A stretch of 64,000 nucleotides of DNA from Minisyncoccota bacterium (GTDB lineage Bacteria; Patescibacteriota; Minisyncoccia; Phycocordibacterales; UBA9973): assembly GCA_041659785.1 (NCBI GenBank), contig JBAZXO010000001.1, positions 19,795 to 83,794 of the forward strand, read 5' to 3'. The translations under genes were made by a program, and so were the position numbers. Below, in pieces: positions 5,484 to 45,409 of the stretch; the stretch's first letter is position 1, and every line of letters starts with the position of its first letter. The notes under the pieces were generated by a model that was not told the DNA's origin, did not search any database, and worked only from the letters and a program-made list of their open reading frames with translations.

Positions 5484-5514
5484 AATTTCTAAAATATTCT
5501 AACATATTTTAGTG

Positions 5515-5586
5515 AGGCCTGGGGCGGAATCGAACCGCCGTATATTCCTTTTGCAGAGGAATGCCTTACCACTTGGCTACCAGGCC
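5515..5586 (-). tRNA. tRNA-Cys (anticodon GCA)
   Basis: Reverse complement GGCCTGGTAGCCAAGTGGTAAGGCATTCCTCTGCAAAAGGAATATACGGCGGTTCGATTCCGCCCCAGGCCT. Confidence 0.85.
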
Positions 5587-8035: not shown

Positions 8036-9334
8036 ATGCTCAAATCAAACTTGTCCCGCCGTGGCGGGGTAAAAGGATCAAATAAAATATATCTAGATTA
8101 TGCTGCGAGTGTAGAAGCGAATCCTAGTTCGATACATTCATTTGGCGTAGATGCAAAAATAAAACTTCAAAATGCGCGAAAAGAAGTAGCGAGTGTTTTA
8201 GGCTCTAGACCTGAAGAAATAATTTTTACGAGCGGTGGCACAGAAAGCAACAACCTTGCGATACAAGGAGTTGTTTGGTCAATTATTGAAATGCACACAT
8301 ATTCGCCTGTTGGCGAATTGCTCTGCTCGGCTCGTCAGCCCGCGCAAGGCATTTCAAAAACTACCAAACAACTCCTTCCACACATTATAACCACAAACAT
8401 AGAACATCCCTCAGTACTTGAGACTTTTAAATTATTAGAAAAAAGAAAACTCGCACAAATTTCTATAGTAGAAGTTGAAGCAAATGGGATAGTGGATCCA
8501 AAGAAAATAAAAAAAGAAATAAAGGAAAACACAATACTTGTTTCGGTTATGTATGCAAATAATGAAATAGGCACGATTCAGCCAATTCGTGAGATAGCAA
8601 AAGAGATTAGGCATTTTAAGAAAATAAAGGAAATCAATTTTTTCTCAGGTCCTCGGAAAAAATCCCCAGACCGTTCAAAAAAATTATTCCCTTCATTTTC
8701 TTTCCCGTTATTCCACACTGATGCAGTGCAAGCAGTTAATTATTTAGACCTTAATGTAGAAAGGCTCGGTGTGGATTTGCTTTCATTATCTGGCTCAAAA
8801 ATTGAGGGAGGAGGCAAAGTAGGAGTTCTTTATAAAAGAAAAATAGTTAAACTTGCAAATGTATATGGTGGAGGGGATCAAGAAATGGGATTACGTCCAG
8901 GGACAGAAAATTTATCAGAAATTTTGAAATTTTCTAGCGCATTAAAATTAGCGCAAGATATTAAAGAAAAAGAAAGTAAACGATTAACAAAACTTCGTGA
9001 TTATTTTTTTAGAGCCGTAGCGGGTAAGGCAATAATTAACGGTGATCTAAAAAATAGATTACCAAATAATGTGAATATAACGTTTCCAAAAATTCCAAGC
9101 GACCTTTTGGTTATTGAACTTTCTGCGAAAGGTATCATGGCATCTTCGAAAAGCGCTTGCAAAAGTTCCAGCTCAGAAGGTTCATATGTCATAAAAGCAA
9201 TACACCCAGAGATAGATAGAGAGATAGGCGGACTTCGTTTTTCGATGGGCAGAAAGACTACAAAGAAAGATATCGACTATACAATTAAAGTTTTATCTCA
9301 TATTTTGACAAAACTAAAAAAATGGTATGATTAG
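8036..9334 (+). CDS. cysteine desulfurase / class-V aminotransferase (IscS/NifS-like) with lineage-specific insertions
   Basis: IYLDYAAS N-terminus, ..TTNIEHPSVLE.., the PLP-lysine motif SLSGSKI, GLRPGTEN. A GC-rich mini-palindrome sits at codons 5-12 (8049-8069). Confidence 0.8.
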   Translation: MLKSNLSRRGGVKGSNKIYLDYAASVEANPSSIHSFGVDAKIKLQNARKEVASVLGSRPEEIIFTSGGTESNNLAIQGVVWSIIEMHTYSPVGELLCSARQPAQGISKTTKQLLPHIITTNIEHPSVLETFKLLEKRKLAQISIVEVEANGIVDPKKIKKEIKENTILVSVMYANNEIGTIQPIREIAKEIRHFKKIKEINFFSGPRKKSPDRSKKLFPSFSFPLFHTDAVQAVNYLDLNVERLGVDLLSLSGSKIEGGGKVGVLYKRKIVKLANVYGGGDQEMGLRPGTENLSEILKFSSALKLAQDIKEKESKRLTKLRDYFFRAVAGKAIINGDLKNRLPNNVNITFPKIPSDLLVIELSAKGIMASSKSACKSSSSEGSYVIKAIHPEIDREIGGLRFSMGRKTTKKDIDYTIKVLSHILTKLKKWYD

Positions 9335-9339: not shown

Positions 9340-10122
9340 ATGGATATTAAAGATTTAAATAAATCACAACTTATTCTGCTCGCAGTATTGCTTTCCTTCA
9401 TCACTTCTATTGCGACAGGAATTACGACTGTTACGTTGATGCAACAAGCGCCTGTATCTTTTACTGCGCCAATAAATCGTGTCGTTCAGCAAACAATTGA
9501 GAAAATTCAGCAAGTAGAAGGCAAGACTACGGTGCAGACAGTAGTCGTCAAAGAAGAAGACTTAGTCGTAGATGCAATTGCGAAAAATAAATCTGCTGTA
9601 TTTTCTGTAACAAAAGAAACACAAGACGTAGACGGGAAAACTATTGAAGTTTCTGCAGGACGAGGGTTTGCAGTTTCTACTGATGGAGTAATCGTTGTAG
9701 ACGCCACACTTGTACCAGATAAAGGAGTTTATTATGTAAAAAATGAAAGTGGAAAATTTAAAGCAGACTTTATGTCAGCCGATAAGAATGGATTTTCTTT
9801 TCTTAAAGTAGGAGCCTCTTTGAACGGAACAGACAAGCCAGCCTTTACTGTGCCAACTTTTGGAGATTTAAGTAAAATGAAAATAGGACAACAGGTTTTA
9901 GTTATTGGTAATTCCGTATCTTCTTTTATCTTTGAAGGATTAAATTCAAATAAAAATATAGATGTAAATGTATCAAAATCAAATGTTGGAAGTCTTGTAT
10001 TAAATCTAGACGGTGAAGCCTTAGGCATTGCACTATCTCCAGATACCTCATCATTTGCCTCAATTGAAAGCATCACAAACGCACTTAAGGGTTCTGATGC
10101 GCCAGCTCCTAAAGCTCTCTAA
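9340..10122 (+). CDS. membrane-anchored trypsin-like (HtrA/S1C-like) domain protein with apparently degenerate catalytic residues
   Basis: N-terminal TM. GRGFAVSTDGVIVVDATLV, VIGNSVSS and SNVGSLVLNLDGEALGIAL align to the HtrA TNxHV / GNSGGP regions, but the Ser/His positions are replaced. Confidence 0.4.
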   Translation: MDIKDLNKSQLILLAVLLSFITSIATGITTVTLMQQAPVSFTAPINRVVQQTIEKIQQVEGKTTVQTVVVKEEDLVVDAIAKNKSAVFSVTKETQDVDGKTIEVSAGRGFAVSTDGVIVVDATLVPDKGVYYVKNESGKFKADFMSADKNGFSFLKVGASLNGTDKPAFTVPTFGDLSKMKIGQQVLVIGNSVSSFIFEGLNSNKNIDVNVSKSNVGSLVLNLDGEALGIALSPDTSSFASIESITNALKGSDAPAPKAL

Positions 10123-17146: not shown

Positions 17147-17167
17147 CCCACGCCACGGCGGGGCAAG
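17147..17167. repeat. family A mini-palindrome (reverse orientation) between the typA stop and the next start codon
   Basis: cccacgccacggcggggcaag, then aaaattt, then ATG at 17175. Confidence 0.7.
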
Positions 17168-21225: not shown

Positions 21226-22470
21226 ATGAAGAAGAAAGTTGTTTTTGTCGGTATATCAGGAGGCGTAGATAGCGCTGTTTCAGCCGCAATGCTTAAAAAG
21301 CAGGGTTTTGACGTGGTGGGAGTTTTTATTAAAACTTGGCATCCAGATTTTCTAGAGTGTAATGAAGAAGATGAGCGTCGTGATGCTATGCGTGTGGCAG
21401 CTTTTTTAGATATTCCTTTTCTTACTTTTGATTTTGAAGATGTTTATAAAAAAGAAGTAGCTGACTATATGATAAGTGAATATAAGCTGGGGCGAACACC
21501 AAATCCAGATGTGATGTGCAACAAGGAAGTGAAGTTCGGCGCATTTCTTAAAAAAGCTCTTTCAATGGGTGCAGACTTTGTGGCGACTGGACATTATGCG
21601 GAGAATGGCGAGGTAAAAGTTGATTTTTTGAGTGGTGACGTTGCGAAGCAGGATATTCCTGAAAAAAAACAATTTTTACATCGCCAGCAAGACAAAACAA
21701 ATCATGCTTTTCTCAACCTGCCTGCTAAAGCAACGTCGGTATTCGAAAAACATAATTTGTTTTGTCTTAAAAAAGGTGTAGATTCATCCAAAGATCAAAG
21801 TTATTTTTTATGGACACTTAGACAAGAACAATTGAAGAAAATTTTATTTCCAATAGGGCATCTCAAAAAGACAGAAGTAAGAAAACTTGCTAAGAAATTT
21901 AGTCTTCCTGTAGCAGAGAAAAAGGATAGTCAAGGTATATGTTTTTTAGGAGCAGTAGATTTGAAAGATTTTTTGAAGCACTATATTAAAGTAAAAAAAG
22001 GAAAAGTTGAGAATGAAAAAGGGGAAGTAATTGGGCATCATGATGGGGCAGTTTTTTATACTTTAGGGGAAAGGCATGGTTTTACAATCACACAAAAAAC
22101 ACCGAAAGATGGTGCATATTACATAGTGGGTAAAGATATAAATAAAAATATTTTATATGTGTCACAAAATCCTCTCCCCAACCCCTCTCCATTAGTAACT
22201 AATGGAGAGGGGCGAAGGGGTGAGGCAATTAAAATTATTAATACAAATTGGATTTCAGAAGTTCCAGAAATTCACCCCGCCGATGGCGGGGCAAGTAAAA
22301 ACTATACTGCGCAGATTCGTTACCATAGTGAATTTTTGCCTTGCAAAATTAAAGTTCTTTCTAAGAATAAAGCTGAAATAATTTTTACAAAAACAATCTT
22401 GGTTGCTTCTGGCCAATCCATCGTGGTCTACGATGGTGATATTTGCTTGGGTGGTGGAGTAGTTGTATAA
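21226..22470 (+). CDS. mnmA: tRNA-specific 2-thiouridylase MnmA, carrying lineage-specific in-frame insertions
   Basis: VFVGISGGVDSAVSAAML PP-loop; ..ATGHYA..; KDQSYFLW. 414 aa against a typical ~360. Confidence 0.85.
   Translation: MKKKVVFVGISGGVDSAVSAAMLKKQGFDVVGVFIKTWHPDFLECNEEDERRDAMRVAAFLDIPFLTFDFEDVYKKEVADYMISEYKLGRTPNPDVMCNKEVKFGAFLKKALSMGADFVATGHYAENGEVKVDFLSGDVAKQDIPEKKQFLHRQQDKTNHAFLNLPAKATSVFEKHNLFCLKKGVDSSKDQSYFLWTLRQEQLKKILFPIGHLKKTEVRKLAKKFSLPVAEKKDSQGICFLGAVDLKDFLKHYIKVKKGKVENEKGEVIGHHDGAVFYTLGERHGFTITQKTPKDGAYYIVGKDINKNILYVSQNPLPNPSPLVTNGEGRRGEAIKIINTNWISEVPEIHPADGGASKNYTAQIRYHSEFLPCKIKVLSKNKAEIIFTKTILVASGQSIVVYDGDICLGGGVVV
22171..22295. repeat. two different GC palindromic elements inserted in-frame in mnmA: family C at 22171-22225 and family A at 22275-22295
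   Basis: cccctctccattagt-a-actaatggagagggg is a perfect 15-bp inverted repeat, followed by gaaggggtgagg. Then ccccgccgatggcggggcaag. They encode NPSPLVTNGEGRRGEA and HPADGGASK. Confidence 0.8.
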
Positions 22471-22948: not shown

Positions 22949-24596
22949 AATTAGATCAAAATTTCTAAAATTTTTTGAAAATCGAGGACATAAAATAATT
23001 CCTTCTTCTTCGTTGATACCCAATGACCCTTCAGTGCTTTTCACAACAGCTGGAATGCAGCAGTTTAAACCTTATTATACCAATCCACAAAATGCTGATA
23101 AAGATTTTGGTAATAGAAATATTACAACAGCTCAGAAATGTATTCGTACCGGTGACATAGAAGAAGTCGGTGATGCTACGCATCTGACTTTTTTTGAAAT
23201 GCTTGGGAACTTTTCTTTTGGTGGCTATGGTAGACGTGAGGCTATTACTTATGCATATGATTTTATTGTTAAAGAATTAGGTTTGGAAATTTCTTATGTA
23301 ACTGTTTATAAAGGTGAGGGGATAGTTCCCAAGGATGATGAATCGCGCGCTGTTTGGGAAGAGTTAGGAGTGAAGGATATTCGTTTAGATGGTCATGATG
23401 TTTTTTGGGGGCCGACAGGAGACTCTGGGCCATGCGGACCAACAACAGAGATTTATTGCAAAAATGCAGATGGGGTTGATGTAGAAATTTGGAATATTGT
23501 TTTTAATGAATATTTTTGTGACAATTCTCGTGAAAAATTAGATAAAGGACAAGCTAATCTAAAAAAATTAGATGTTTTAGGCATAGATACAGGTATGGGG
23601 TTAGAACGCTTGCTTGCAACTGTTCAGAAAAGGAAAAATGTTTACGAAACAGATGTTTTTAATAATGAACAAACAAAAGAAGAAAGAATAGTTGCAGATC
23701 ATATAAAAGCGTCCCTTTTCATGATTTCAGATGGAGTAGTTCCATCAAATACTGGAGCTGGATATGTATTACGAAGATTAATAAGACGAGCAGTTAGATT
23801 TTCTAAACAGCCTCTGTCACAAGAAATAGAAAAAATAAAAAAAATTTACGAAGGAGTTTATGTTCTTGATGATAAGGGAGAAATAGAAAATGAAGAAAAA
23901 AAGTTTAGACATACGCTTGAGCATGGATTAAAAGAATTTGAAAAGGGGATAGATCCATTCGTTTTGGCTACTACTTATGGTTTTCCAATAGAACTTACTC
24001 TTGAGTTAGCAAAAGAAAAAGGACAGACGATTGACCTAGAAGAATTTCATAAAAAGATGGCAGAACATCAGAAATTATCGCAGACTTCATCCGCCGGTAT
24101 GTTTAAGGGTGGGCTTGCAAATCATAATGAAAAAACAATCAGACTTCACACTGCACACCATTTATTGCTTGCTGGACTTCAGGCAGTTGTAGATAAAAAT
24201 ATAAAACAACGAGGAAGTAACATCACCGAAGAGCGTTTACGTATGGATTTCTTGTGTGATCATAAATTAACTGATGAAGAAAAACAAAAAGTGGAAATCT
24301 GGGTCAATGAAAAAATTTCTGAAGGTTTAAATGTTGTTCGCAAAGAGATGCCCTTGGTTGAGGCAGAAAAGCTCGGCGCAGAAATGGAATTTGGTGCTAA
24401 ATATCCAGATATCGTATCTTTATATTTTATAGAAGAACCCGCCAAGGACGGGTCAGGTAAAAATGTTAATGTAATATCTAAAGAATTTTGTGGTGGACCA
24501 CATGTAAATAACACTAAAGAATTGGGTAAATTTAAAATTCAAAAAGAAGAAGCTGTAGCTGCTGGCATTAGACGCATCAAGGCAGTACTGGAATAA
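22935..24596 (+). CDS. alaS: alanyl-tRNA synthetase, compact form (catalytic + editing HxxxH/CxxxH motifs; no long C-terminal extension)
   Basis: FTTAGMQQFKPYY, HLTFFEMLGNFSFGGY, GPCGPTTEIY, editing-site HTAHHLL and CGGPHV. Only 553 aa. Confidence 0.8.
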   Translation: MESNEIRSKFLKFFENRGHKIIPSSSLIPNDPSVLFTTAGMQQFKPYYTNPQNADKDFGNRNITTAQKCIRTGDIEEVGDATHLTFFEMLGNFSFGGYGRREAITYAYDFIVKELGLEISYVTVYKGEGIVPKDDESRAVWEELGVKDIRLDGHDVFWGPTGDSGPCGPTTEIYCKNADGVDVEIWNIVFNEYFCDNSREKLDKGQANLKKLDVLGIDTGMGLERLLATVQKRKNVYETDVFNNEQTKEERIVADHIKASLFMISDGVVPSNTGAGYVLRRLIRRAVRFSKQPLSQEIEKIKKIYEGVYVLDDKGEIENEEKKFRHTLEHGLKEFEKGIDPFVLATTYGFPIELTLELAKEKGQTIDLEEFHKKMAEHQKLSQTSSAGMFKGGLANHNEKTIRLHTAHHLLLAGLQAVVDKNIKQRGSNITEERLRMDFLCDHKLTDEEKQKVEIWVNEKISEGLNVVRKEMPLVEAEKLGAEMEFGAKYPDIVSLYFIEEPAKDGSGKNVNVISKEFCGGPHVNNTKELGKFKIQKEEAVAAGIRRIKAVLE

Positions 24597-24625
24597 ATTT
24601 GGAAGATAAATTATTAAATTAAAAA

Positions 24626-25099
24626 CCTCACCCCTGCCCCCTCTCCAGAATACTGGCGAGGGGTAAATGCAACATACTAAGTGTGCTATATTTTAAGTAA
24701 TGGTTATATTAAAAACAATAATTAAAGCAAGATATTTAAGGAAAGAAGAAACTAAAACAGAACAAATACTTTGGGAGAAACTTAGAAATAATAATCTTGG
24801 TATGAAATGGAGAAGACAGCATCCTTTGGATATGTTTATCCTTGATTTTTACGCACCTAAAATAAAACTCGCGATAGAATTAGACGGTTCTATTCATAAT
24901 ATAAAAGAAAATAAAGAATATGATAAAGATAGAACAGATTATTTGAAATCTAAAGATATACAAGTTCTGAGATTTTGGAATTCTGAAGTAGAAAAAGATT
25001 TAGAAAACGTTTTAAATAAAATAAAAGAAAAAACAAAAGAACTTTTATAAGTTTGTATTTTTCCCCTCTCTGGTACTCCGGAGAGGGGAAGGGGTGAGG
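24626..25099. mobile_element. candidate miniature cassette: a DUF559 gene bracketed by inverted copies of the family C GC palindromic element, with 10-bp terminal inverted repeats CCTCACCCCT / AGGGGTGAGG
   Basis: Left element 24626-24664 (cctcacccctgccccctctcc..gcgaggggt). Right element 25063-25099 (cccctctctggtactccggagaggggaaggggtgagg). The two ends are exact reverse complements. Confidence 0.5.
24700..25050 (+). CDS. DUF559 (Vsr-like PD-(D/E)xK endonuclease-fold) domain protein
   Basis: ARYLRKEETKTEQILWEKLRNNNLGMKWRRQHPLDMFILDFYAPKIKLAIELDGSIH..VLRFWNSEV matches the DUF559 consensus. Confidence 0.7.
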   Translation: MVILKTIIKARYLRKEETKTEQILWEKLRNNNLGMKWRRQHPLDMFILDFYAPKIKLAIELDGSIHNIKENKEYDKDRTDYLKSKDIQVLRFWNSEVEKDLENVLNKIKEKTKELL

Positions 25100-25145
25100 A
25101 GTATTTGGCTCAAATAGTTATCCCCATTTCACTTTCCAAAACTTC

Positions 25146-25161
25146 TGGGGGGGGGTTATAA
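25146..25161. promoter_or_regulatory. G9 homopolymer abutting a TATAAT -10 box upstream of a surface-protein gene (candidate slipped-strand phase-variation site)
   Basis: ctggggggggg ttataat at 25146-25161; ATG at 25197. Confidence 0.5.
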
Positions 25162-25196
25162 TTAAAAGAGTAATTTATTAATTTAATTTTTTACAT

Positions 25197-26282
25197 ATGA
25201 ATAAAAAAATATTAAGTGTTTTAGTTTTTTCTTTGTTCGTTTTAGGTGCCACAAAAGCTTTCGCTTCTTTAACCTTCAGCTCAGCTGCTATTACAGGAGA
25301 TGCTGCTTCTACGATAGATGTAGGTGCAGGGAATGCTTTGTCATTACAGACTACGAACAACGGAGCGATAACCACAGGAACAGGTTTAGTTACATTAGGA
25401 GGAAGTTTAAATGCTGCAGGTATTATTACTTTACCCATGACTACAAGTTCAACGACTGGTGTCATCTATAAAGGAGCAACACCTTTTATTCATAATTTTA
25501 ATTTTGGAAATAATGGAACAGTTACAACTGATGGTAAAAATACCTTCGTTGGAATAAATGCTGGTAATTTTACAATGGGGAGTACTGCGACATTAACATA
25601 TGAAAGCAGTAGTAATGTTGGTATAGGTCAAGATGTCTTAACAATTAATACTAAGGGATATGGTAATACTGCAACAGGTTGGTCTGATTTAAAACTTAAC
25701 ACTACTGGTAGTTGGAACACTGCATATGGGGTAACGGCACTTTATAATAATACAACGGGTAGTAATAATGTAGCAATTGGTGGAGAGGCATTAGGTTTTA
25801 ACACCATAGGTGGAGAAAACACTGCAGTTGGTGTTTATGCTCTTGATTTCAATACTACAGGAAGTCTTAATACCGCTAATGGTATGTACTCTCTTAGCTC
25901 TAATAGCACTGGTTCTCGCAACGTTGCATTGGGATACGCCGCGGGAGCGTACGAATTAGGGTCTAGTTCATTTTACGTAGATGCTTATGACCGAGCAAAC
26001 ACTGCAGGGGATAAAGCAGGGGCTTTGCTATACGGAACATTTAATGCGACGCCAAGTCTTCAGACTTTAACTATCAATGGAAAGATTACTGCAAGTAATG
26101 CTATGAATAAAGGCACAGTAGCTCTCTCTGCTGGCACAGCCACAGTCACAGTTGTCTCTGGTGCTGTCTGCGTAGTTAGCGAAACGACAACTGCTACAAA
26201 TGGAGTTAAGGGTGCAGTCGTCGGCACAACGCTTACAATCACGGGTACTGGTACAGATACTATTGCTTATATTTGTTTGTAA
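25197..26282 (+). CDS. secreted G/T/N-rich repeat surface protein (paralog A)
   Basis: Signal peptide MNKKILSVLVFSLFVLGATKAFA. Degenerate NTxxG..AL repeats. The N-terminal 55 aa and the promoter are duplicated at 36875. Confidence 0.5.
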   Translation: MNKKILSVLVFSLFVLGATKAFASLTFSSAAITGDAASTIDVGAGNALSLQTTNNGAITTGTGLVTLGGSLNAAGIITLPMTTSSTTGVIYKGATPFIHNFNFGNNGTVTTDGKNTFVGINAGNFTMGSTATLTYESSSNVGIGQDVLTINTKGYGNTATGWSDLKLNTTGSWNTAYGVTALYNNTTGSNNVAIGGEALGFNTIGGENTAVGVYALDFNTTGSLNTANGMYSLSSNSTGSRNVALGYAAGAYELGSSSFYVDAYDRANTAGDKAGALLYGTFNATPSLQTLTINGKITASNAMNKGTVALSAGTATVTVVSGAVCVVSETTTATNGVKGAVVGTTLTITGTGTDTIAYICL

Positions 26283-26330
26283 ATTTTTCCTTCAATTTAT
26301 TTGCGTTCATGTTTATGTTATAATTAATGC

Positions 26331-30786: not shown

Positions 30787-30808
30787 CTTTTCCCGCCAGG
30801 GGCGGATA
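30787..30808. repeat. GC mini-palindrome (tcccgcc-aggg-gcgga, then taaata) 13 nt upstream of the rpoA ATG
   Basis: cttttcccgccaggggcggata resembles 1453-1470 (tttccgccaaaggcggata). Confidence 0.65.
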
Positions 30809-32586: not shown

Positions 32587-32625
32587 TAATACTTGCCCCG
32601 CCATGGCGGAGTGAAGATAAAGAAA

Positions 32626-33051: not shown

Positions 33052-33101
33052 TTCTAAAATACCCCTTTCTTATAGGGGTATTTTTATGTTAAGATAAATA
33101 T

Positions 33102-33740
33102 ATGGTAGATAAAGAAGAAAAGAAACTTGCCCCGTCCAAAGGCGGGGATAATGAAATTCCTACAGAGGGAGATACTTCCGAGGTTCTTGAATTTGAGTTC
33201 AACGAAGACGGGGAAGAAGATTTAAAGAAAACTCTAAAGAAATTTAGAGCGGACATAAAAGAACTCAAGAAAGAAAACTACGAGCTTAACGCCACAAGTA
33301 TTGAGTATCTTACTGGCTGGCAGAAAGAGCGAGCAGAATTCGCAAATTATAGAAAACAAGAAGATGAAAGAAAAGCAATCTTTTCCGAAGCGATGCGTGA
33401 GAGAATACTTACTCGTTTTTTGACCGTCTCTGATAGCTTCAACATGGCTTTCGCAAACAAAGAGGCTTGGGAAAAAGTCGATGATAATTGGCGTAAAGGT
33501 GTGGAATATATTTATGCTCAGATGAATGGAATATTTGAAGAATATGGAGTGAAACCCGTAGGTGAAGTAGGTGAGAGTTTTGACCCCAATATTCATCAAT
33601 CTGTCGATGTTGTAGAAACAGACAAAAAAGAACTAGAACACAAGGTGGCAACTGTGATACAAAAAGGCTATAAATTAGGCGAGCGCGTCATGCGTCCAGC
33701 TAGGGTAAATGTGTACGAGTTCAAAGAAAAAGTAGTATAA
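33102..33740 (+). CDS. grpE: nucleotide exchange factor GrpE (the N-terminal tail contains an in-frame family A palindrome)
   Basis: C-terminal ..KVATVIQKGYKLGERVMRPARVNV..; the element at 33126-33147 encodes KKLAPSKGGDNE. Confidence 0.85.
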   Translation: MVDKEEKKLAPSKGGDNEIPTEGDTSEVLEFEFNEDGEEDLKKTLKKFRADIKELKKENYELNATSIEYLTGWQKERAEFANYRKQEDERKAIFSEAMRERILTRFLTVSDSFNMAFANKEAWEKVDDNWRKGVEYIYAQMNGIFEEYGVKPVGEVGESFDPNIHQSVDVVETDKKELEHKVATVIQKGYKLGERVMRPARVNVYEFKEKVV

Positions 33741-36809: not shown

Positions 36810-36874
36810 TTGCTTTTGTCTACGGGGAGGGGTTATAATTAAAAGGTTAATTTATCAGTTTAATTTTTTAATGT

Positions 36875-37861
36875 ATGAATAAAAAAATATTAAGTTTGTT
36901 TGTTTTATTGGTATTGGTTTCGGGGGCAACTAAAACTTTTGCATCTTTAACATTTAGCTCTGCTGCCATTACAGGAGACACAGCTTCTACGATAGACGTA
37001 GGTGCAGGAAATGCGTTATCGTTACAGACTACAAATAATGGGAATATTATTACAGGAAGTGGAAATTTTGGAGTTGGTATTGGTATACCTACACAAAAAC
37101 TTGATGTTGTCGGTTTTGTTAATACTGATCTTGGTTATAAACAAGCAGGAAATACAATTCTTTTTACCAAAACTTCTAATCATTCTACTGCTGTGGGTGC
37201 TTCTTCTGCAGCTTCATGGATGGCTACTACGCCTCTTGATTATTCTGCAACTGCTGTAGGCTATGGCGCTCTTGCAACAACTCCTGTAGATGTTGGAGGT
37301 TTAGCATGGGATAATTCTGCTTTCGGAGTTAATTCTCTTGCAAGTACTACAACAGGTGGATATAACGTTGCAGTTGGTGGTTATTCTCTTTTTTCTAACA
37401 CTACAGGTTGGTTTAACACTACAATAGGTGATTCATCTCTTGGTTCAACCACTACAGGATGGGGTAATAGTGCTAATGGGAATGGGGCTCTTTTATCTAA
37501 CACCACAGGCTCATACAATACAGCACTCGGCATGAGTGCTCTTTATTATAATTCAGTGGGTTCCAATAATATTGCCTTGGGGCATAATGCTGGTAGTTAC
37601 GAAACAGGTTCAAATTCTTTTTATGTAGACAATCAAGATCGTTTAAATACTGCAGGAGATAAAGCGAATGCTATTCTTTATGGAATAATGGCACCAGCGG
37701 CAGTTAATCAGACATTGCATATCAATGCAGTAGTGATGCCAATCCAGGCTACGACAGCTGCTGCACCAGCTTATGTAAAGGGAGGAATGTATTTTGATAC
37801 AACTTTAAATAAGTTAAGAGTAGGGGGAGCGACTGGTTGGGAAACAGTTACTTCATCATAA
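36875..37861 (+). CDS. secreted G/T/N-rich repeat surface protein (paralog B of 25197)
   Basis: Upstream region plus the first ~55 aa are about 80% identical at nucleotide level to 25120-25370; the remainder is divergent. The -10 TATAAT lies at 36834-36839, preceded by GGGGAGGGG. Confidence 0.5.
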   Translation: MNKKILSLFVLLVLVSGATKTFASLTFSSAAITGDTASTIDVGAGNALSLQTTNNGNIITGSGNFGVGIGIPTQKLDVVGFVNTDLGYKQAGNTILFTKTSNHSTAVGASSAASWMATTPLDYSATAVGYGALATTPVDVGGLAWDNSAFGVNSLASTTTGGYNVAVGGYSLFSNTTGWFNTTIGDSSLGSTTTGWGNSANGNGALLSNTTGSYNTALGMSALYYNSVGSNNIALGHNAGSYETGSNSFYVDNQDRLNTAGDKANAILYGIMAPAAVNQTLHINAVVMPIQATTAAAPAYVKGGMYFDTTLNKLRVGGATGWETVTSS

Positions 37862-37930: not shown

Positions 37931-40072
37931 ATGGACTTGCCAGAAATACCTATAAATAAAGATGTTACCTATCTGGGTCTTACTACTTTTCGTGACAAAA
38001 ATCAGCTCTTCGGCATAAAGCGCAAGGACAGACGCCAGCATGTTTATATTCTCGGAAAGTCAGGTACGGGTAAATCTGTGCTCATGTTCAACATGATTAT
38101 TCAGAACATCCAGAATGGCGAAGGTGTCTGCGTAGTTGACCCGCACGGAGAGCTCGTAGAAGGAGTCTTGTCGGCTATTCCACCGGAACGTATTAAAGAT
38201 GTAGTTTATTTCAACCCTGCTGATGCCGATCACCATATTGGTTTCAACGTTTTAGAATTAATTGATCCTCAATACAAACATCTCGTGGCTTCAGGGCTCA
38301 TGGGTATTTTCACTAAAATTTGGGCGAATGCATGGAGTGCCCGAATGGAATATATTTTAAACAATTGTATTTTAGCTTTGCTCGATACTCCAGGTACGAC
38401 ACTGCTCGGCATTCCTAGAATGCTCGTCGATAAAGATTATCGCCAGAAAATAATTGCGAATTTAAAAGACCCAGTTATTAAGGCTTTCTGGATTCACGAG
38501 TATGAAGCTTGGCAAGATAAATTTAGAAATGAAGCGATCGCTCCGATTCAAAACAAAGTCGGGCAATTTCTCTCTACATCCATCATCCGCAATGTCGTCG
38601 GTCAATCTTTAAGTACTATAAATATTTTCGACATCATGAATGATGGGAAGATTTTCCTCGTAAACGTTTCGAAAGGGCGCATCGGTGAAGATAACTCTGG
38701 CCTCCTAGGAGGAATGATCATTACCAAAATTCAGCTCGCTGCGATGGAGCGTGTTCGTATTCCGGAAGATCATCGTAAAGACTTTTACCTATATGTCGAC
38801 GAATTCCAGAATTTCGTGACGGACGCTTTTGCAGGTATTTTGTCTGAGGCTAGAAAATACAGATTGAACCTTACTGTTGCCCACCAATACACTGCCCAGC
38901 TCGTCGTGGACAAGAGTTCTGCCGTGCGAGATGCTGTCTTTGGAAACGTGGGTACGATGATTGTCTTTCGTGTTGGCTCTGATGATGCAGACTTCTTGGA
39001 AAAAGAATTTGATCCAGAATTTACTCCTTCGGACATTGTTAATTTGCCGAATTATAAAATTTATTTGAAATTAATGATAGATGGAGTTACGTCTAGACCT
39101 TTTTCTGCGAAGACACTTCCACCTATGGTTAAGTCCGGTGATAAAAAAGTAGAAGAAGCAGTTATCAAATCTTCTCGTGAACTTTATTGTAGACCCAAGG
39201 AATTAGTAGAAAGAGAAATTAATGACTGGAGCGGAATGTCACTTGGGAATTATAGTGAATCAGGAGGGGGAGCGGGTATGGAGAAATTCCCAGTTATCTG
39301 TTCACTTTGTAAACTAGAAAAGACTGTACCTTTCAAGCCAGAGCCAGGCAGAGCTGTTTATTGTAAGGAATGTATTGCAAAAATAAAATCCGGAGAGGTA
39401 AAGGTAGAGAAAAAAGGACAAGATCAAATAAATTACGATGAATCTAAATTTTTTAAACCGTTAGCTGATTTAGGTATAGAATTTCAACCAAAGAATGTAA
39501 AAGTTGAAGAAGAAAACAGATATCCTGAGAGAGTAGAGAAACATACTTCAGCACCAACAAAACCTTCTTCTGTGCCAAAACCATATATTTCTGCAAATAA
39601 ACCCTCCTCTTCGGCGGGCAGGCCAGGAATTATGGGGGCAATTAAAAAAGTTTTTGTTCCCACTCCAAAGGTAAACCAAAATAAAGCTGAGGCTCCTAAA
39701 AAAATAGATAATTCAGCACTTAGGGAAGTTTTAAATAAAACTTTACATAGTGAACAGGCGAGCCCGGTGATTCCAACTCCAGCACCAGTCAAGACTCCTG
39801 TGCCAGAGCCTGTTTCTCTTGATTCCTTAAAAGATAAAATAAAAGAAGAAGATAAAAAACTTGCCCGTCCATCTGGTGGAAATTTTTCATCATACAATGA
39901 TCGTTCTGCTGGCGCAGATGAGATGAATAAATTGAAAAATTTGATTTCAGAAAAAATTGAAACTAAAAAAGAAGAAGTAGCTCCAGCTCCAGCTCCAACA
40001 CCAATTCCGATACCTCAAAAACCAGCAACAAAAGAAGTACCTGAAGATGTTTTAAGAAAAGTTTTAGAATAA
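37931..40072 (+). CDS. VirD4/TraD/TraG-family type IV coupling-protein-like P-loop ATPase with a C-terminal CxxC..CxxC zinc ribbon and a P/K/A-rich low-complexity tail
   Basis: Walker A YILGKSGTGKS, VVDPHGE, Walker B FYLYVDEFQNF, ARKYRLNLTVAHQYTAQL and FGNVGTMIVFRVG (TraG-D_C-like). CSLCKLEK...CKECI ribbon. Confidence 0.6.
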   Translation: MDLPEIPINKDVTYLGLTTFRDKNQLFGIKRKDRRQHVYILGKSGTGKSVLMFNMIIQNIQNGEGVCVVDPHGELVEGVLSAIPPERIKDVVYFNPADADHHIGFNVLELIDPQYKHLVASGLMGIFTKIWANAWSARMEYILNNCILALLDTPGTTLLGIPRMLVDKDYRQKIIANLKDPVIKAFWIHEYEAWQDKFRNEAIAPIQNKVGQFLSTSIIRNVVGQSLSTINIFDIMNDGKIFLVNVSKGRIGEDNSGLLGGMIITKIQLAAMERVRIPEDHRKDFYLYVDEFQNFVTDAFAGILSEARKYRLNLTVAHQYTAQLVVDKSSAVRDAVFGNVGTMIVFRVGSDDADFLEKEFDPEFTPSDIVNLPNYKIYLKLMIDGVTSRPFSAKTLPPMVKSGDKKVEEAVIKSSRELYCRPKELVEREINDWSGMSLGNYSESGGGAGMEKFPVICSLCKLEKTVPFKPEPGRAVYCKECIAKIKSGEVKVEKKGQDQINYDESKFFKPLADLGIEFQPKNVKVEEENRYPERVEKHTSAPTKPSSVPKPYISANKPSSSAGRPGIMGAIKKVFVPTPKVNQNKAEAPKKIDNSALREVLNKTLHSEQASPVIPTPAPVKTPVPEPVSLDSLKDKIKEEDKKLARPSGGNFSSYNDRSAGADEMNKLKNLISEKIETKKEEVAPAPAPTPIPIPQKPATKEVPEDVLRKVLE

Positions 40073-40075
40073 TAT

Positions 40076-41539
40076 ATGGCAAAGTCTAATAGAGTACAGA
40101 TAATAAAATATGCTCCGCCACCACCAGAATTACCAGTCTTCGGAAAGGTAAAGCCAGAAGATGTGTCTTTTATTGGGCGGACAAATTATGTAGCTTCTCT
40201 AGAAGAAAAGAAGTTTGTTTTCGGCATCAAGAGAGTAGACCGCCGAAGACATCTTTATATTATCGGAAAGTCCGGAGTCGGTAAGACGAAATTGCTCGAG
40301 CTTTTTATACGTCAAGATGTTTCTTATAATCATGGATTGTGTTTGATCGATCCACACGGAGACGTCATAGATTCCATGCTTGATTATATTCCTAAAGATC
40401 GTATCGAAGATGTTTGCATTATAGATCCTTCTGATATTGATTTTCCGGCTTCTTTCAACCCACTAGCGAACGTGGACCCAATGTTTAAGTTTCAGCTCAC
40501 TCAAGGCCTCATTGAAGTTTTCCAGAAACAATTCGGAGCAAATTGGACGCCTCGTCTAGAACACGTTTTTCGTTTTACTTGTTTAGCACTCCTAGATTAT
40601 CCTCATGCCACGATGCGTGGAATGATTTCAATGCTTACTGACAGAAATTACAGACAGAAAGTCGTGGAATACATTACAGACGACATGGTGAAGAGATTCT
40701 TCGCTATTGAGTTCGCAGACTGGTCTGAGAAATTCGATACAGACGCTATCATTCCACTTGTAAACAAACTCGGTCAATTCCTCTCAGACCCACTTCTCCG
40801 AAATATTTTCGGACAGAAGCAAAACAAAATAGATATCACTAAATTAATGAATGAAGGGAAAATAATCCTTATCAATCTTTCTAAAGGGCGCCTTGGTGAA
40901 GAAAATTCTTCTTTTCTTGGTTCTATATTTTTAACAAAAATAAAACAAGCTGGTATGGAGCGTGCTGCTATTCCTGAACAAGATCGTAACGACTTTTATC
41001 TCTATGTGGATGAGTTCCAAAACGTCGTGACACAGACCTTCGAAAATATTTTATCAGAAGCTAGAAAATATGGCTTGAATTTAACAATTGCCCATCAGTA
41101 TGTGGGACAGATTTTACCTAAAGTGCATCAGGCCGTGCTCGGAAATGTCGGAAGTGTAATTTGTTTCCGTGTCGGCGGTGAAGATGCTGTAAAACTAAAG
41201 CCAGAATTCGCACCCGTTTTCGACGTAAAGGATATGATCAACCTTGCTGTAGCAGAATTTTATATAAAAATGACGATTGATGGGGAGTCTTATGACCCAT
41301 TTTCTGCAGAGACTCTACGTGTATTACCACCAACTCATCCTTCATACAGGCAAGAGATTATAGACGCATCTCGCAGAAAATATTCGATACCCAAGGATGA
41401 TGCAGCGACGCTTATAGCTGAAGAAGAAGCTACAATTATTCGAAGTGTAGAAGAAAAAGCGATAATTGAAGGTAAGACAAAAAGAAAAGATAGAGAAGAT
41501 AATTCAGAAACTTCCCAAGAAGGGGAGCCTATGATATAG
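40076..41539 (+). CDS. second VirD4/TraD-family coupling-protein-like ATPase (shorter tandem paralog)
   Basis: YIIGKSGVGKT, LIDPHGD, FYLYVDEFQNV, ARKYGLNLTIAHQYVGQI. Roughly 40% identical to the upstream paralog. Confidence 0.6.
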   Translation: MAKSNRVQIIKYAPPPPELPVFGKVKPEDVSFIGRTNYVASLEEKKFVFGIKRVDRRRHLYIIGKSGVGKTKLLELFIRQDVSYNHGLCLIDPHGDVIDSMLDYIPKDRIEDVCIIDPSDIDFPASFNPLANVDPMFKFQLTQGLIEVFQKQFGANWTPRLEHVFRFTCLALLDYPHATMRGMISMLTDRNYRQKVVEYITDDMVKRFFAIEFADWSEKFDTDAIIPLVNKLGQFLSDPLLRNIFGQKQNKIDITKLMNEGKIILINLSKGRLGEENSSFLGSIFLTKIKQAGMERAAIPEQDRNDFYLYVDEFQNVVTQTFENILSEARKYGLNLTIAHQYVGQILPKVHQAVLGNVGSVICFRVGGEDAVKLKPEFAPVFDVKDMINLAVAEFYIKMTIDGESYDPFSAETLRVLPPTHPSYRQEIIDASRRKYSIPKDDAATLIAEEEATIIRSVEEKAIIEGKTKRKDREDNSETSQEGEPMI

Positions 41540-43972: not shown

Positions 43973-45409
43973 TTAAATCTTAGAAATCTTTTGCCCCATG
44001 TTTGTATCCTTAACTTCATAACCCAGAGAATTTATTTTTTCTCGAAGCTCATCGGACTTTTTAAAATCTTTATCCTTGCGAGCTTGTTCGCGTTCTTCGG
44101 CTAGCTTTTTTACTTCTTCAGGAATTACGTCTTCCTTTAAGTGTTCGAAGCCTAACCCTAACACTTTATCGAAGTCTAAAATTGTAGCTTTCTTGTCGGC
44201 GTCTGACATGTTTTCATCTTTAAAAACATCCCACAATAATGCTAAAGCCCTAGGGGTGTCTAGGTCGTCTTCTATGTATTCTTTAAACTTATTTTGGTAT
44301 TCCTTATGTACATGGCCCACTTGCCCCGTCCTTGGCGGGGACTCATTTGCCCCCGCCTCAGGCGGGACAAGAAGCCCTAAATAAAGGCCATAAAGGCGTT
44401 TTAAGGCTGTTTCAGCGCCCTCGAGTGCTTCCCATACAAAGTTGACTTTAGTACGATAGCTAGCCATTAAAAGCCAAAAACGATAGGTTATAGGGTTTAT
44501 GTTTTTTTCAATTAAACTTTCCAATCTTAAAAAATTATTTGCTGATTTAGACATTTTCTCGTTACCTGTATCAACAAATTCACTATGCATCCAGAATTTA
44601 ACAAAAGGCTTTTTACCAGTAGCGCATTCTGATTGAGCTATTTCATTTGTGTGATGTGTAGGTATAAGATCAATGCCCCCTGTGTGAATATCAAATTGTT
44701 CACCAAGAAATTTTAGACCCATAGCAGAACATTCAATGTGCCATCCCGGAAAACCAATTCCGAAAGGGGATTCAAAACCAATTTTATTATCAGTCTTCCA
44801 CAATGCGAAATCTTCAGGATTTATTTTTTCAGAATTTTCTGTTACCCTAGCTCCTTCTTTGTTCCAGTCCCTTTTACCACTCCAAAGTGCTCCATAGTCA
44901 GGCATTTTAGAAACATTGAAATATATTCCATCACTTGTTTTATATGTGTATCCTTTTTCTGTTAGTTTTTGGATTAATTCAATGTCTTCTTTAACATAAT
45001 CGCTTGCAAAATATAAACCTGAAGGCATTTCGATATTAAGGGCTTGTAAATCTTTTTTAAAACTTTCAGTATAAAATTCTGCAAGCTCACGCATGTTTTT
45101 TAGCGTTAATTCTTTTCCTTCTCGCAAAAGTCCCTTGGTCATTTTATCTTCACCAGAATCAGCATCACTTGAAAGATGCCCGATGTCAGTGATGTTCATG
45201 ACTTGCTTTACTATAAATCCTTCATATTGAAGAGTGCGATGTACCAAGTCGGCAAAAAAGAAAGAACGCAAATTACCTATATGGGTATAGTTATAAACTG
45301 TTGGGCCACAGGTATACATTCGTACCTCCTTCGGATCTATGGGGGTAAAAATGTCTTTTTCTTTAGTTAGAGTGTTGTAAAATTTTAAAGCCATTTTATT
45401 TAAATTCAC
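43973..45409 (-). CDS. cysS: cysteinyl-tRNA synthetase carrying an in-frame double GC-palindrome insertion
   Basis: MYTCGPTVYNYTHIGNLR (HIGH), KMSKS, zinc-binding Cys/His residues. The insertion encodes ..VPPEAGANESPPRTGQVGH. Confidence 0.9.
   Translation of the reverse strand: MNLNKMALKFYNTLTKEKDIFTPIDPKEVRMYTCGPTVYNYTHIGNLRSFFFADLVHRTLQYEGFIVKQVMNITDIGHLSSDADSGEDKMTKGLLREGKELTLKNMRELAEFYTESFKKDLQALNIEMPSGLYFASDYVKEDIELIQKLTEKGYTYKTSDGIYFNVSKMPDYGALWSGKRDWNKEGARVTENSEKINPEDFALWKTDNKIGFESPFGIGFPGWHIECSAMGLKFLGEQFDIHTGGIDLIPTHHTNEIAQSECATGKKPFVKFWMHSEFVDTGNEKMSKSANNFLRLESLIEKNINPITYRFWLLMASYRTKVNFVWEALEGAETALKRLYGLYLGLLVPPEAGANESPPRTGQVGHVHKEYQNKFKEYIEDDLDTPRALALLWDVFKDENMSDADKKATILDFDKVLGLGFEHLKEDVIPEEVKKLAEEREQARKDKDFKKSDELREKINSLGYEVKDTNMGQKISKI
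44320..44371. repeat. composite of two adjacent family A palindromes inside cysS
   Basis: cttgccccgtccttggcgggg + actcatttg + cccccgcctcaggcgggacaag. The outer ends cttgcccc.../...gggacaag are themselves inverted. Confidence 0.75.

Follow-up and report, generated by a model that had tools for sequence, protein, structure and literature searches.

REPs are short (20–40 nt) GC-rich imperfect palindromes that carry an unpaired tetranucleotide at one end, occur in many copies and in two orientations, and at times stand as inverted pairs. They are mainly extragenic. The HUH Y1 enzymes of the IS200/IS605 and RAYT groups recognise subterminal hairpins together with an adjacent tetranucleotide, and insert without duplication of the target. 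Among the palindromic elements of Rickettsia, RPE-1 is ~100–150 bp in length and encodes 30–50 amino acids. In the mitochondria of yeast and other organisms the GC clusters, which are short GC-rich hairpins, have spread in AT-rich compact genomes, occasionally inside coding sequence. Uptake sequences (DUS and USS) are linear motifs of 9–12 nt that arise by substitution, at ~1 per kb. The genomes of CPR bacteria (Patescibacteria) are usually described as streamlined and repeat-poor. Tagged REPs of the GTAG and CGTC superfamilies have been described, and uvrA is among the known genes in which some of them lie in frame (Di Nocera et al., 2013; PMC3733652).

We have analyzed a 64 kb stretch of DNA from a Candidatus Paceibacterota MAG (36.5% GC), referred to below as the window. 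It contains 11 copies of a 21 nt hairpin, plus one related hairpin, where ~1 copy would be expected by chance. Our preferred reading, to which we give a probability of about 0.6, is that these belong to a REP/RPE-like family of hairpin repeats, very small and non-autonomous, whose insertion took place at the DNA level across the genome.

The unit shares with REPs its short GC-rich palindrome with a four-nucleotide unpaired end, its many copies in two orientations and an occasional inverted pair; a REP lies within uvrA, and the CPR unit is likewise found in a UvrA gene. The differences are that its tag is CTTG, not GTAG or CGTC, that 21 nt is at the bottom of the REP size range, that its copies are mostly intragenic (7–9 of 11) whereas REPs are mainly extragenic, and that its host genome is reduced, with a GC content of 36.5%. 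None of the 11 copies in the window takes the typical REP position downstream of a gene, and neither the window nor two related loci that carry RAYT-like genes yielded a cognate RAYT gene with this hairpin on its flanks.

The RPEs (Ogata et al., 2000, 2002; cited in PMC3733652) are also in-frame palindromes in many unrelated, often essential, genes of a reduced AT-rich genome, tolerated in surface and linker regions and patchy among relatives. In MnmA, AlaRS, GrpE, CysRS (twice) and PepN the CPR unit is present in frame and is absent from orthologs. However, it encodes only 7 amino acids, compared with the 30–50 of RPE-1, and common descent with the RPEs is unlikely given the Paceibacterota host. 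The mitochondrial GC clusters belong to another genetic system and to other sequence families, and are mostly intergenic. Like the DUS of Neisseria and the USS of Pasteurellaceae, the unit is over-represented on both strands, occupies permissive intragenic positions and is common to related species; unlike them it is an indel, a hairpin of 21 nt, with a density of about one per 6 kb, and one close relative lacks it. MITEs have terminal inverted repeats that match an IS element, and a target duplication, whereas the unit has only its hairpin and 4 nt tag, and its junctions in AlaRS and MnmA are clean.

Nor does the unit resemble an intrinsic terminator, for in no copy is the stem followed by a T-run in the sense direction. 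A terminator scan picked out just three, the grpE and pepN copies when read antisense and the copy at 17148, each with a 4 nt spacer; genuine terminators with T-runs occur elsewhere in the window, for example at 33063 and 51110. With the Rfam 15 models at their gathering scores, the window gave only tRNAs and one tmRNA, and nothing at any copy.

Results

A 21 nt hairpin is repeated in the window

The unit consists of CTTG, CCCCGYC, a loop of 2–4 nt and GGCGGGG, with a canonical length of 21 nt and a range of 20–22 nt. On folding as DNA, the CCCCGYC and GGCGGGG arms form a stem of 7 bp closed by the short loop, leaving the CTTG tag unpaired, with energies across the copies of −3.5 to −8.9 kcal mol-1. 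The consensus of the tag is C(T/C)TG, and the junctions in AlaRS and MnmA place the tag itself within the inserted 21 nt. The GC content of the units is 62–81%, in genes with 22–35% GC at the third codon position, and in all copies five or six of the six reading frames are open. The T in CCCCGTCC was considered as a bulged base, and this was rejected; the folding gives a G·T wobble in a 7 bp stem with a 4 nt loop. A hairpin at 51185, upstream of an aaRS gene, shares CTTGTCCCG with the unit; it is a different structure and was excluded from the copy count.

Allowing two mismatches, CCCCGYCCNNNGGCGGGG has five strand matches at three loci, compared with 0.02 expected from shuffled sequence. The 5′ half of the unit (CTTGYCCCGYC, up to one mismatch) is matched ten times compared with 1.03 expected, and none of 100 shuffles reached ten. 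Six of the 11 copies lie on the plus strand and five on the minus strand. Seven are clearly intragenic, two lie at the 5′ ends of genes and only two are clearly intergenic. The reading frame is kept by every intragenic copy, each adding seven residues to its host, these hosts being MnmA, AlaRS, GrpE, a TrwB-like ATPase, CysRS (two copies) and PepN.

Four or five copies are found 5–30 nt 5′ of start codons (at 1495, 8050, 17148 and 32592, plus the related hairpin at 30787). Copy 1 (1495–1515, plus strand; CTTGCCCGTCCTTTGGCGGGG, 21 nt, −4.6 kcal mol-1) is intergenic; 7 nt separate its end from the ATG (1523) of an ORF with a Pfam match to T4SS_pilin (E = 3e-10). An initial annotation of this DNA had already noticed this copy before a pilin gene, as gcttgcccgtcctttggcgggg, which starts at 1494. 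Copy 2 (8050–8069, plus strand; CTTGTCCCGCCGTGGCGGGG, 20 nt) is at the 5′ end of a cysteine-desulfurase-like ORF (8036–9334), either as codons 5–12 or in the 5′ UTR. Copy 3 (17148–17167, minus strand; CTTGCCCCGCCGTGGCGTGG) occupies the 28 nt spacer between the stop codon of BipA (17146) and the ATG (17175) of a sigma-70-r4/HARE-HTH gene. Copy 6 (32592–32611, plus strand; CTTGCCCCGCCATGGCGGAG, 20 nt) lies in the spacer that separates the stop codon of rplM from the ATG of rpsI or, if a TTG start is used, encodes a seven-codon N-terminal extension MPRHGGV. The related hairpin (30787–30807, plus strand; CTTTTCCCGCCAGGGGCGGAT) is in the rpsD-rpoA spacer; it has three mismatches to the consensus and its membership of the family is uncertain.

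Within genes, copy 4 (22275–22295, minus strand; CTTGCCCCGCCATCGGCGGGG, 21 nt) has a perfect 7 bp stem and the energy of −8.9 kcal mol-1, and is antisense and in frame in MnmA. Copy 5 (24437–24457, minus strand; CCTGACCCGTCCTTGGCGGGT, 21 nt) is slightly decayed, and is antisense and in frame in AlaRS, to which it adds PAKDGSG. Copy 7 (33126–33146, plus strand; CTTGCCCCGTCCAAAGGCGGG, 21 nt) adds LAPSKGG in frame at the N-terminus of GrpE, the next G belonging to a native GAT codon. Copy 8 (39860–39880, plus strand; CTTGCCCGTCCATCTGGTGGA) is a decayed copy in the C-terminal tail of the TrwB/VirD4-like ATPase, where it reads KLARPSGG. Two copies occur in CysRS, a minus-strand gene: copy 9 (44320–44340, plus strand; CTTGCCCCGTCCTTGGCGGGG, 21 nt) is antisense and adds SPPRTGQ, and copy 10 (44351–44371, minus strand; CTTGTCCCGCCTGAGGCGGGG, 21 nt) is sense and adds LVPPEAG. 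They form an inverted pair with a gap of 10 nt and the CTTG tags on the outer sides. Copy 11 (55999–56019, minus strand; 21 nt) is identical to copy 7 at 21 of 21 positions and adds LAPSKGG in frame to PepN, an M1 aminopeptidase, as residues 617–623.

The unit is therefore read as LAPSKGG, LVPPEAG, SPPRTGQ, PAKDGSG, IHPADGG and (M)PRHGGV, and is also found between genes. Since a single unit is read in several frames and orientations and has intergenic copies, the signal resides in the DNA and not in the peptide.

The copies in GrpE and PepN

The initial annotation had described in-frame copies in grpE and pepN that encode KKLAPSKGG(D/E)NE. Both are present in intact ORFs, that of GrpE at 33102–33740 (plus strand, 212 amino acids) and that of the aminopeptidase at 55345–57867 (minus strand, 840 amino acids), and translate as KKLAPSKGGDNE and KKLAPSKGGENE. 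The positions require small corrections. The grpE 33-mer aaacttgccccgtccaaaggcggggataatgaa occupies 33123–33155 on the plus strand rather than 33121–33153, and its pepN counterpart, which reads aagcttgccccgtccaaaggcggggaaaatgaa on the minus strand, occupies 55990–56022 rather than 55981–56013; of the 33 positions, 2 differ between them. A unit of ~33 nt, as first proposed, is not what is repeated. The repeated unit is 21 nt, or seven codons, and the additional identity comes from the native flanking codons AAR AAR/GAW AAT GAA (the slash marks the insertion point) at two similar target sites. We also considered a 22 nt unit combined with a 1 nt deletion (one G lost from A(T/A)AGATGAA at both filled sites) or with co-conversion of the flanks. 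This was rejected because removal of seven codons restores KK-DNE and KK-ENE, and KK-ENE is a frequent native variant of PepN. The unit is thus 21 nt, with the final G native. A sortase-like LAxTG reading of LAPSKGG was rejected by reasoning only, as the motif does not match and the host proteins are cytoplasmic.

Is the peptide an ancient part of these proteins? No insert of any kind is present at this site in 112 of 120 PepN orthologs, and most GrpE orthologs lack the peptide, so it is not universal. The empty PepN site (L008/P0123 and 111 other orthologs) differs from the filled one by a clean 7 amino acids (21 nt). Fitch parsimony on a neighbor-joining tree of the 120 orthologs gives absence as the ancestral state, with at least five changes. 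The site has accordingly been filled separately in several lineages, at least five times among the 120. The PepN orthologs range from 812 to 904 amino acids in length, and in the ortholog alignments dozens of hairpin-encoded inserts of 6–13 amino acids are seen at a few hot spots, together with palindromic inserts of 31–54 amino acids; the 31–54 amino acid, RPE-like inserts in the PepN of relatives belong to other families.

In the AlphaFold model of PepN (mean pLDDT 81.6) residues 617–623 lie in a loop between helices 592–611 and 628–643, and pLDDT is below 50 at residues 618–623. In GrpE the insert is in the disordered N-terminus, a region that has been filled repeatedly among orthologs. GrpE orthologs without the insert include that of L002, a contig with 94.9% DNA identity to the window, and others present a decay series from LAPSKGG through LTSSKGG to PVRPEGG. 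Comparing the window with L004, the grpE hairpin differs at 1 of 22 positions while the flanking gene is only ~73% identical (P ~0.009 under neutral decay).

Filled and empty sites in relatives

Clean ortholog differences of 21 nt (seven codons) were found for MnmA, AlaRS, GrpE, PepN and CysRS, with no duplicated flank at any clean junction. These pairs uphold the earlier view of a miniature GC-rich palindrome that is inserted at the DNA level and tolerated in reading frames, in the manner of the Rickettsia elements. In MnmA, copy 4 adds seven residues within EIHPADGGAS that are missing from the L001 and L005 orthologs. The empty AlaRS site of the same two relatives reads GAAGAT/AAAAAT, with no duplicated bases. 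CysRS has two separate seven-residue inserts relative to its orthologs, and its linker has been filled repeatedly among them. In the rplM-rpsI spacer L002 has copy 6, whereas L001, L004 and L005 lack it.

Some copies are decayed. The tail of the TrwB-like ATPase has homologous decayed copies in L001 (KLASPSGG) and L005 (KPASTRQGG), and the PepN copy of L009 has become LAHHGG (CTTGCCCACCATGGCGGGG); the copies at these two places are read as old and decaying. The rpsD-rpoA hairpin is identical in L001, from a relative at ~83% nucleotide identity. In ~35 kb of syntenic DNA of that relative (L001 and L009, 82–83% nucleotide identity) this hairpin and decayed remnants are all that is found, with no intact copy. 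The expansion in the lineage of the window is, on this comparison, lineage-specific.

Occurrence in other Patescibacteria

The motif recurs beyond the window, and in other Patescibacteria its hosts include GyrB, UvrA, PurL, a Mur ligase, riboflavin synthase, YebC and a DUF192 protein. All intragenic copies found of a subfamily with a 4 nt loop in other CPR genomes are sense and are read as LAPSxGG; they occur in ~12 independent host genes, usually after KK. A metagenome scan gave 29 stretches, one of which (L047) is the same as L004, the source of the grpE ortholog above. Matches in high-GC genomes and metagenomes were set aside as chance matches or terminators, and a scan of viral contigs gave nothing beyond the ordinary terminators of GC-rich phages.

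A Pfam scan of ~60 ORFs of the window revealed no transposase of any type, nor did tblastn with a RAYT-like protein reveal one. RAYT-like Y1 genes flanked by hairpins do occur at two related Paceibacterota loci, L061 and L090, where they score 34.8 bits compared with an NCBIfam cutoff of 80. The flanking hairpin there is CAYAGGNGTTNCCTRTG, different from the CTTG hairpin, and it was not found in the window. The clade has, in these, a candidate enzyme class. The clean junctions match those of IS200/IS605 and RAYT enzymes, but with none in the window and a different hairpin at the genes of relatives the comparison is a mechanistic analogy only.

Discussion

How might such a repeat have spread? 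We suggest that new copies would come from a reaction on single-stranded DNA, of the cut-or-copy-and-insert type and catalyzed in trans by an HUH Y1 (RAYT/IS200-like) transposase or comparable enzyme encoded elsewhere. Insertion would favor A/T homopolymer runs, often directly after Lys-Lys codons, and conversion between copies may add to their similarity. Selection would then remove copies that break the frame and those in structured regions. Because the unit is GC-rich, with five or six of its six frames open, and has a length of 3n, the survivors would gather in housekeeping proteins, at disordered termini, in linkers and in surface loops. On this reading the repeat need not have any function for the cell. 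Recent mobility, which had been claimed from the identity of the copies, may be inferred from their patchiness among orthologs and from two identical copies in one genome, but the window encodes no mobilizing enzyme and some copies are old.

The spread of selfish repeats that are blind to frame leaves two observations unexplained, namely the constant LAPSxGG frame of the subfamily and the conservation of the hairpin above that of its host genes. The latter raises the possibility of selection on the hairpin or of conversion between copies, rather than simple selfish spread.

It is unlikely, in our estimation, that gene conversion or recombination between copies or short similar flanks, possibly with DNA taken up from relatives, is the main source of copy likeness and refilling in place of a dedicated transposition. 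Within the window the PepN and grpE copies agree at all 21 positions, whereas the copy that L009, a close relative, carries at this PepN site is different, a pattern characteristic of concerted evolution. The target sites in grpE and pepN are two 15-mers that are almost the same, and the window has only 11 sites within two mismatches of this sequence. Exchange of genetic material among Patescibacteria is reported (PMC12455944). Yet homology of flanks cannot explain MnmA and AlaRS, since their insertion flanks (TTTTTA/T...) differ from those of grpE and pepN. An AT-rich homology of 9–15 nt is short for exchange of the RecA type, and conversion accounts for copies remaining alike, not for the first arrival of a copy at a new site.

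We are slightly more doubtful of a functional cis element kept by selection, whether a site for a DNA- or RNA-binding protein, a recognition sequence for T4SS or competence uptake in these nucleotide-scavenging bacteria, or an RNA hairpin acting at translation starts or in antisense termination. Such a role would fit the greater conservation of the hairpin than of the host gene at shared sites, the copies close upstream of start codons, and the rpsD-rpoA hairpin that is unchanged in a relative as divergent as L001. The antisense grpE and pepN copies do consist of the hairpin, CAAG and a T-rich tail, as the terminator scan detected, and the window also encodes T4SS pilins and TrwB-like ATPases. 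Against this, the orthologs differ by 21 nt indels and not by substitutions, and the unit is patchy even between contigs of 95% DNA identity and has no intact copy in the ~35 kb of the close relative. The copies decay freely and use both orientations. Their density is well under the ~1 per kb of uptake sequences, and they have neither an Rfam match nor a T-run after any stem on the sense strand.

Less probable again is a 'coding REP' that is site-directed to positions after in-phase Lys-Lys codons (AAR AAR/G) and kept by conversion or by selection for a hairpin role, as a T4SS or uptake mark or an intragenic stop to antisense transcription. If true, this would explain the constancy of LAPSxGG, the repeated filling of loop sites in separate lineages and the persistence of the hairpin beyond the divergence of the host gene.

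It is improbable that KKLAPSKGG(D/E) is a selected short linear motif, as a signal for modification, binding or degradation gained by several proteins, with the DNA identity secondary. The subfamily is constantly LAPSxGG, usually after KK, in ~12 unrelated proteins, and the inserts are placed in exposed or disordered segments. But the synonymous positions are fixed as GC-rich (CTT GCC CCG TCC .. GGC GGG) in genes with such low third-position GC, the same genome reads the unit in other frames and orientations and carries it between genes, and most orthologs lack the insert, which also decays at the level of the peptide (LTSSKGG, LAHHGG). Chance resemblance, low complexity or an assembly artefact can be dismissed, for while stems of the GCCCCGCC/GGCGGGGC type are frequent in the ordinary terminators of GC-rich bacteria and phages, shuffles predict ~1 match compared with the ten seen, and the same insertions are found at the same sites in independent JGI, ENA, NCBI and Logan assemblies.

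We return to the preferred reading, a family of REP/RPE-like hairpin repeats inserted at the DNA level. Its kind is already known, as intragenic REPs have been described (PMC3733652), but in the literature found, neither this hairpin family nor its occurrence in CPR bacteria appears to have been described before. The genes entered by the 21 nt hairpin are essential ones, namely those of three tRNA-related enzymes, a chaperone co-factor, a peptidase and a secretion ATPase. With its seven codons, the hairpin ranks to our knowledge among the smallest units of insertion.

Judged by the ortholog alignments, the habit of hairpin insertion is general in Paceibacterota. This matters for annotation, in that start codons are called inside copies and inserts give a spurious appearance of divergence, and for phylogenetics, where the inserts are homoplastic indels unsuitable as shared characters. 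The numerous pairs of filled and empty sites in public metagenomes make the rules of insertion directly testable. For the evolution of the proteins themselves, the inserts represent a steady supply of new loops.

The 21-nt Unit in grpE and pepN

We have studied a GC-rich palindrome shared by the grpE and pepN genes of the window, which the initial annotation described as an in-frame element of 33 nt with a third copy before a pilin gene. All three quoted sequences are present, at positions differing by 2 nt in grpE and by 9 nt in pepN from those first assigned. The 33-mers, at 33123-33155 (+) and 55990-56022 (-), differ at two positions. Both are in frame within intact ORFs, that of GrpE at 33102-33740 (insert-bearing segment KKLAPSKGGDNE) and that of PepN, an M1 aminopeptidase of 840 aa, at 55345-57867 (-) (insert-bearing segment KKLAPSKGGENE). 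The third copy begins at 1494, and the gene 3′ of it matches Pfam T4SS_pilin. The core motif gave five strand matches in the window compared with 0.02 expected from shuffles of it, and the 5′ half gave ten compared with 1.0.

Removal of seven codons leaves KK|DNE in GrpE and KK|ENE in PepN, and KK-ENE is a common native variant among PepN orthologs; the unit is therefore the 21-nt CTTGCCCCGTCCAAAGGCGGG. The AAR AAR codons before it and the G plus AWAATGAA after it are native flanks. The two targets are near-identical 15-mers, and only 11 places in the window lie within two mismatches of that 15-mer. The supposed 33-nt element is thus a 21-nt unit set in two similar targets. The original observation is confirmed and its interpretation supported, but the size of the unit and the description of it as recently mobile need correction.

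Filled and Empty Sites

GrpE and PepN of the window have identical counterparts in a Candidatus Paceibacterota MAG, on a 318-kb contig. Their close homologs belong without exception to Paceibacterota, Nomurabacteria or other Patescibacteria. We compared the window with syntenic loci of relatives at the following nucleotide identities: L001 and L009, which are one and the same 85-kb contig, 82-83%; L002, 94.9%; L008, 80%; L005, 76%; and L004, 73%. The AlaRS gene of the window reads GAAGAA[CCCGCCAAGGACGGGTCAGGT]AAAAAT, and the empty site in L001 and L005 reads GAAGAT|AAAAAT, a difference of exactly 21 nt that adds PAKDGSG. The MnmA difference is also 21 nt, with the extra residues lying within IHPADGGAS. 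At these two unambiguous junctions the inserted 21 nt contain the CTTG tag, and the flanking bases are not duplicated. PepN reads KK[LAPSKGG]ENE in the window, and 112 of 120 orthologs lack any insert there; most GrpE orthologs also lack theirs. CysRS carries two separate 7-aa inserts, LYLGL[LVPPEAG]ANE[SPPRTGQ]VGH, encoded by an inverted hairpin pair at 44351 and 44320; neither is found in most orthologs. A/T homopolymer runs often adjoin the unit (TTTTTA| in MnmA and AlaRS, AARAAR| in GrpE, PepN and TrwB). These comparisons show a fixed hairpin-plus-tag unit of 21 nt, inserted in either orientation without target duplication.

The GrpE copy lies within the hypervariable N-terminal tail, the TrwB-like copy within a Pro/Lys-rich C-terminal tail, and the CysRS copies between the catalytic and anticodon-binding domains by Pfam coordinates. 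For PepN of the window, an AlphaFold2 model built on 52 aligned sequences (mean pLDDT 81.6, pTM 0.83) places residues 617-623 in a loop between helices 592-611 and 628-643, with pLDDT <50 at residues 618-623.

The Hairpin Family in the Window

The motif recurs beyond the three sites of the initial annotation. Repeat finding and motif scans gave 11 copies in the window, with the consensus CTTG-CCCCGYC-(2-4 nt)-GGCGGGG and host genes assigned from Pfam. On the plus strand they lie at 1495 (5′ of the T4SS pilin gene), 8050 (5′ end of a cysteine-desulfurase-like gene), 32592 (rplM/rpsI junction), 33126 (GrpE), 39860 (a decayed copy in the tail of a TrwB/VirD4-like ATPase) and 44320 (CysRS); those on the minus strand are at 17148 (spacer between BipA and a sigma-like gene), 22275 (MnmA), 24437 (AlaRS), 44351 (CysRS) and 55999 (PepN). 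As DNA the copies fold into a 7-bp stem with the CTTG tag unpaired, at −3.5 to −8.9 kcal/mol. The units have 62-81% GC, compared with 22-35% at third positions of the host genes and 36.5% in the window overall, and each is free of stops in five or six of its six frames.

In all three 5′-proximal copies the TTG of the tag (32593, 1496 and 8051) shares its frame with the gene that follows, and ORF callers set the rpsI start of L002 at this TTG; the tag is a likely cause of mis-annotated N-termini. Read antisense, the grpE (33130-33147, -) and pepN (55998-56015, +) copies present a hairpin, CAAG and a T-rich tail, and were flagged by a simple terminator scan. A related hairpin, CTTTTCCCGCCAGGGGCGGAT, lies in the rpsD-rpoA spacer (30787-30807) and is identical in L001 (7675-7695, about 83% nucleotide identity). 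This may be a relative of the repeat family that is conserved as a regulatory or processing hairpin. A similar hairpin, TCCGCCAAAGGCGGA, occurs at 1454-1468.

Other features were noted in the window. Four T4SS-pilin-like genes stand in tandem at 144-2253, and four tRNA genes are clustered at 5023-5586. A 1.7-kb segment between AlaRS and an FtsA-like gene (24597-26311), missing from L001, holds a DUF559 (Vsr-like endonuclease) gene and a 361-aa ORF; the latter, its G-run and the promoter-like region upstream of it are together paralogous to the region 36824-37861 (25147-25380 compared with 36824-37058). Two adjacent TrwB/VirD4-like ATPase paralogs occupy 37931-41539, with an internal repeat (38636-38889 and 40847-41100).

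Gain and Decay among Lineages

The window, a 97%-identical homolog and L004 carry the grpE copy; it is decayed in L005 and in the orthologs P0003 and P0064, and absent from L001, L002 and most others. L002 lacks the 21 nt in GrpE, yet like the window it has the copy between rplM and rpsI. All three lineages compared have a degenerate TrwB-like copy, and the PepN copy of L009 has decayed to CTTGCCCACCATGGCGGGG. There are no intact copies in ~35 kb of L001 and L009, compared with several in the corresponding DNA of the window. Fitch parsimony on a neighbour-joining tree of 120 orthologs gave 'absent' as the ancestral state of the PepN site, with at least five changes. In the locus L090 (74% PepN protein identity) the same site holds CCTGCCCCGTCCAAAGGCGGGG, with different flanks. 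The window PepN copy matches the window grpE copy at 21/21 positions, unlike the L009 copy at the same PepN site. This within-genome identity indicates either re-insertion or conversion among the copies.

Exact scans for the T variant, which has a 4-nt loop, found 28 stretches in genome contigs and 29 in metagenome contigs. Those of low GC are from Patescibacteria; high-GC hits and all viral hits were rejected as ordinary terminators or chance matches. The T is not a bulge, since the fold shows a G·T wobble. The patescibacterial hosts are GyrB (N-terminus), UvrA, PurL, Mur ligase, riboflavin synthase, YebC, DUF192 (in seven lineages), GrpE and PepN. In all ~12 independent host genes the variant is in sense orientation and in the LAPSxGG frame, in most of them preceded by Lys-Lys codons; other variants in the window use other frames and orientations. 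AAAAR precedes the unit at 12 of 16 listed sites, not all of them independent, compared with a background of 1.2% per position. A preference for A-runs in phase, together with selection, may account for the LAPSxGG bias.

How Copies Might Move

HUH Y1 enzymes recognize a hairpin and an adjacent tetranucleotide, and leave no duplication. We infer that the unit is mobilized in trans by such an enzyme (RAYT/IS200-like) acting on single-stranded DNA. No transposase genes were found among the window ORFs by Pfam or by a RAYT-like protein search. The related loci L061 (9489-10200) and L090 (22018-22577) contain RAYT-like Y1 genes, mutually 76% identical, that match NF047646 at E = 1.3e-8, under the curated cutoff. 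The hairpins that flank the two genes have the form CAYAGGNGTTNCCTRTG and differ in sequence from the CTTG hairpin; a search of the window for them found none. A dimer of the RAYT-type hairpin in L090 (2890-2925) lies ~40 nt from a CTTG-type copy (2966-2986).

Conversion between copies is a serious, if partial, alternative to mobilization by an enzyme. The LAPSxGG frame bias, the repeated filling of identical sites and the conservation of the hairpin compared with the host genes are not accounted for by this picture, and they leave a small chance that the hairpin is site-directed and functional. With neither TIRs nor target duplication, the unit is not a MITE; nor is it an intrinsic terminator, as the stem lacks a following T-run in sense orientation.

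Relation to Known Repeats

The copies correspond to no Rfam family, and the family does not look like a DNA uptake sequence. The closest described elements are tagged REPs, followed by the larger RPEs. Tagged REPs that lie within genes include RPE-4 and RPE-6 of Rickettsia as well as copies in uvrA (PMC3733652). The CPR hairpin shares with these elements the architecture of tag and GC stem-loop, multi-copy dispersal and in-frame tolerance. It differs from REPs in two criteria, as its tag is neither GTAG nor CGTC and its location is not mainly extragenic. In the literature searched, of which coverage was incomplete, no paper described elements of this sort from CPR/Patescibacteria. We class the family with a kind already known, as a REP/RPE-like repeat of CPR bacteria that is 7 codons long, tagged with CTTG and mostly intragenic.

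The hairpin core also occurs within longer repeats. In Chitinophagaceae MAGs (L010, L019, L021, L024, L025, L026 and L032) it lies inside a multi-copy repeat, ..GTTGTAG CTTGCCCCGTCCgnaGGCGGGG TCACTCACTTGTAC.... GTAG is directly 5′ of the hairpin there, which suggests a GTAG-tagged REP-like family in Bacteroidota. One 360-kb contig of the patescibacterium UBA4787 (L012, L035, L037) has three copies of a ~65-nt repeat, TTTTGTCTGATTCCGGA[hairpin]GTGAGCCAATCTCACAAGCGAAG, one of which (L012 6435-6456) is ~35 nt upstream of a tmRNA gene (6490-6867).

PepN orthologs are 812-904 aa long and carry many other inserts of 6-13 aa. One, PRHGGAS in six lineages, is the same hairpin unit read antisense; others are LGHSPTGEA, PSAIGLRAR and KLARRG. 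At one PepN site (alignment position 496), 25 of 120 orthologs, P0122 among them, have in-frame insertions of 31-54 aa that belong to several sequence families. In L009 (2979-3119) the insert, of 111 nt, folds into a long hairpin (−42.9 kcal/mol) and is RPE-like in this respect. The GrpE N-terminus is likewise a hot spot, with other insert families in other lineages (orthologs P0010-P0117), the short ones including PLEAARDDS(A/T)ES, LPPRQSAEEAEKE and SADAQSLGETKEKE. In L091 two small GC-rich hairpins, side by side, encode the GrpE insert PLEAARDDSAES (10039-10080); infA of the same locus has a further hairpin insert near 3989. Acquiring inserts of these sorts is general in the clade.
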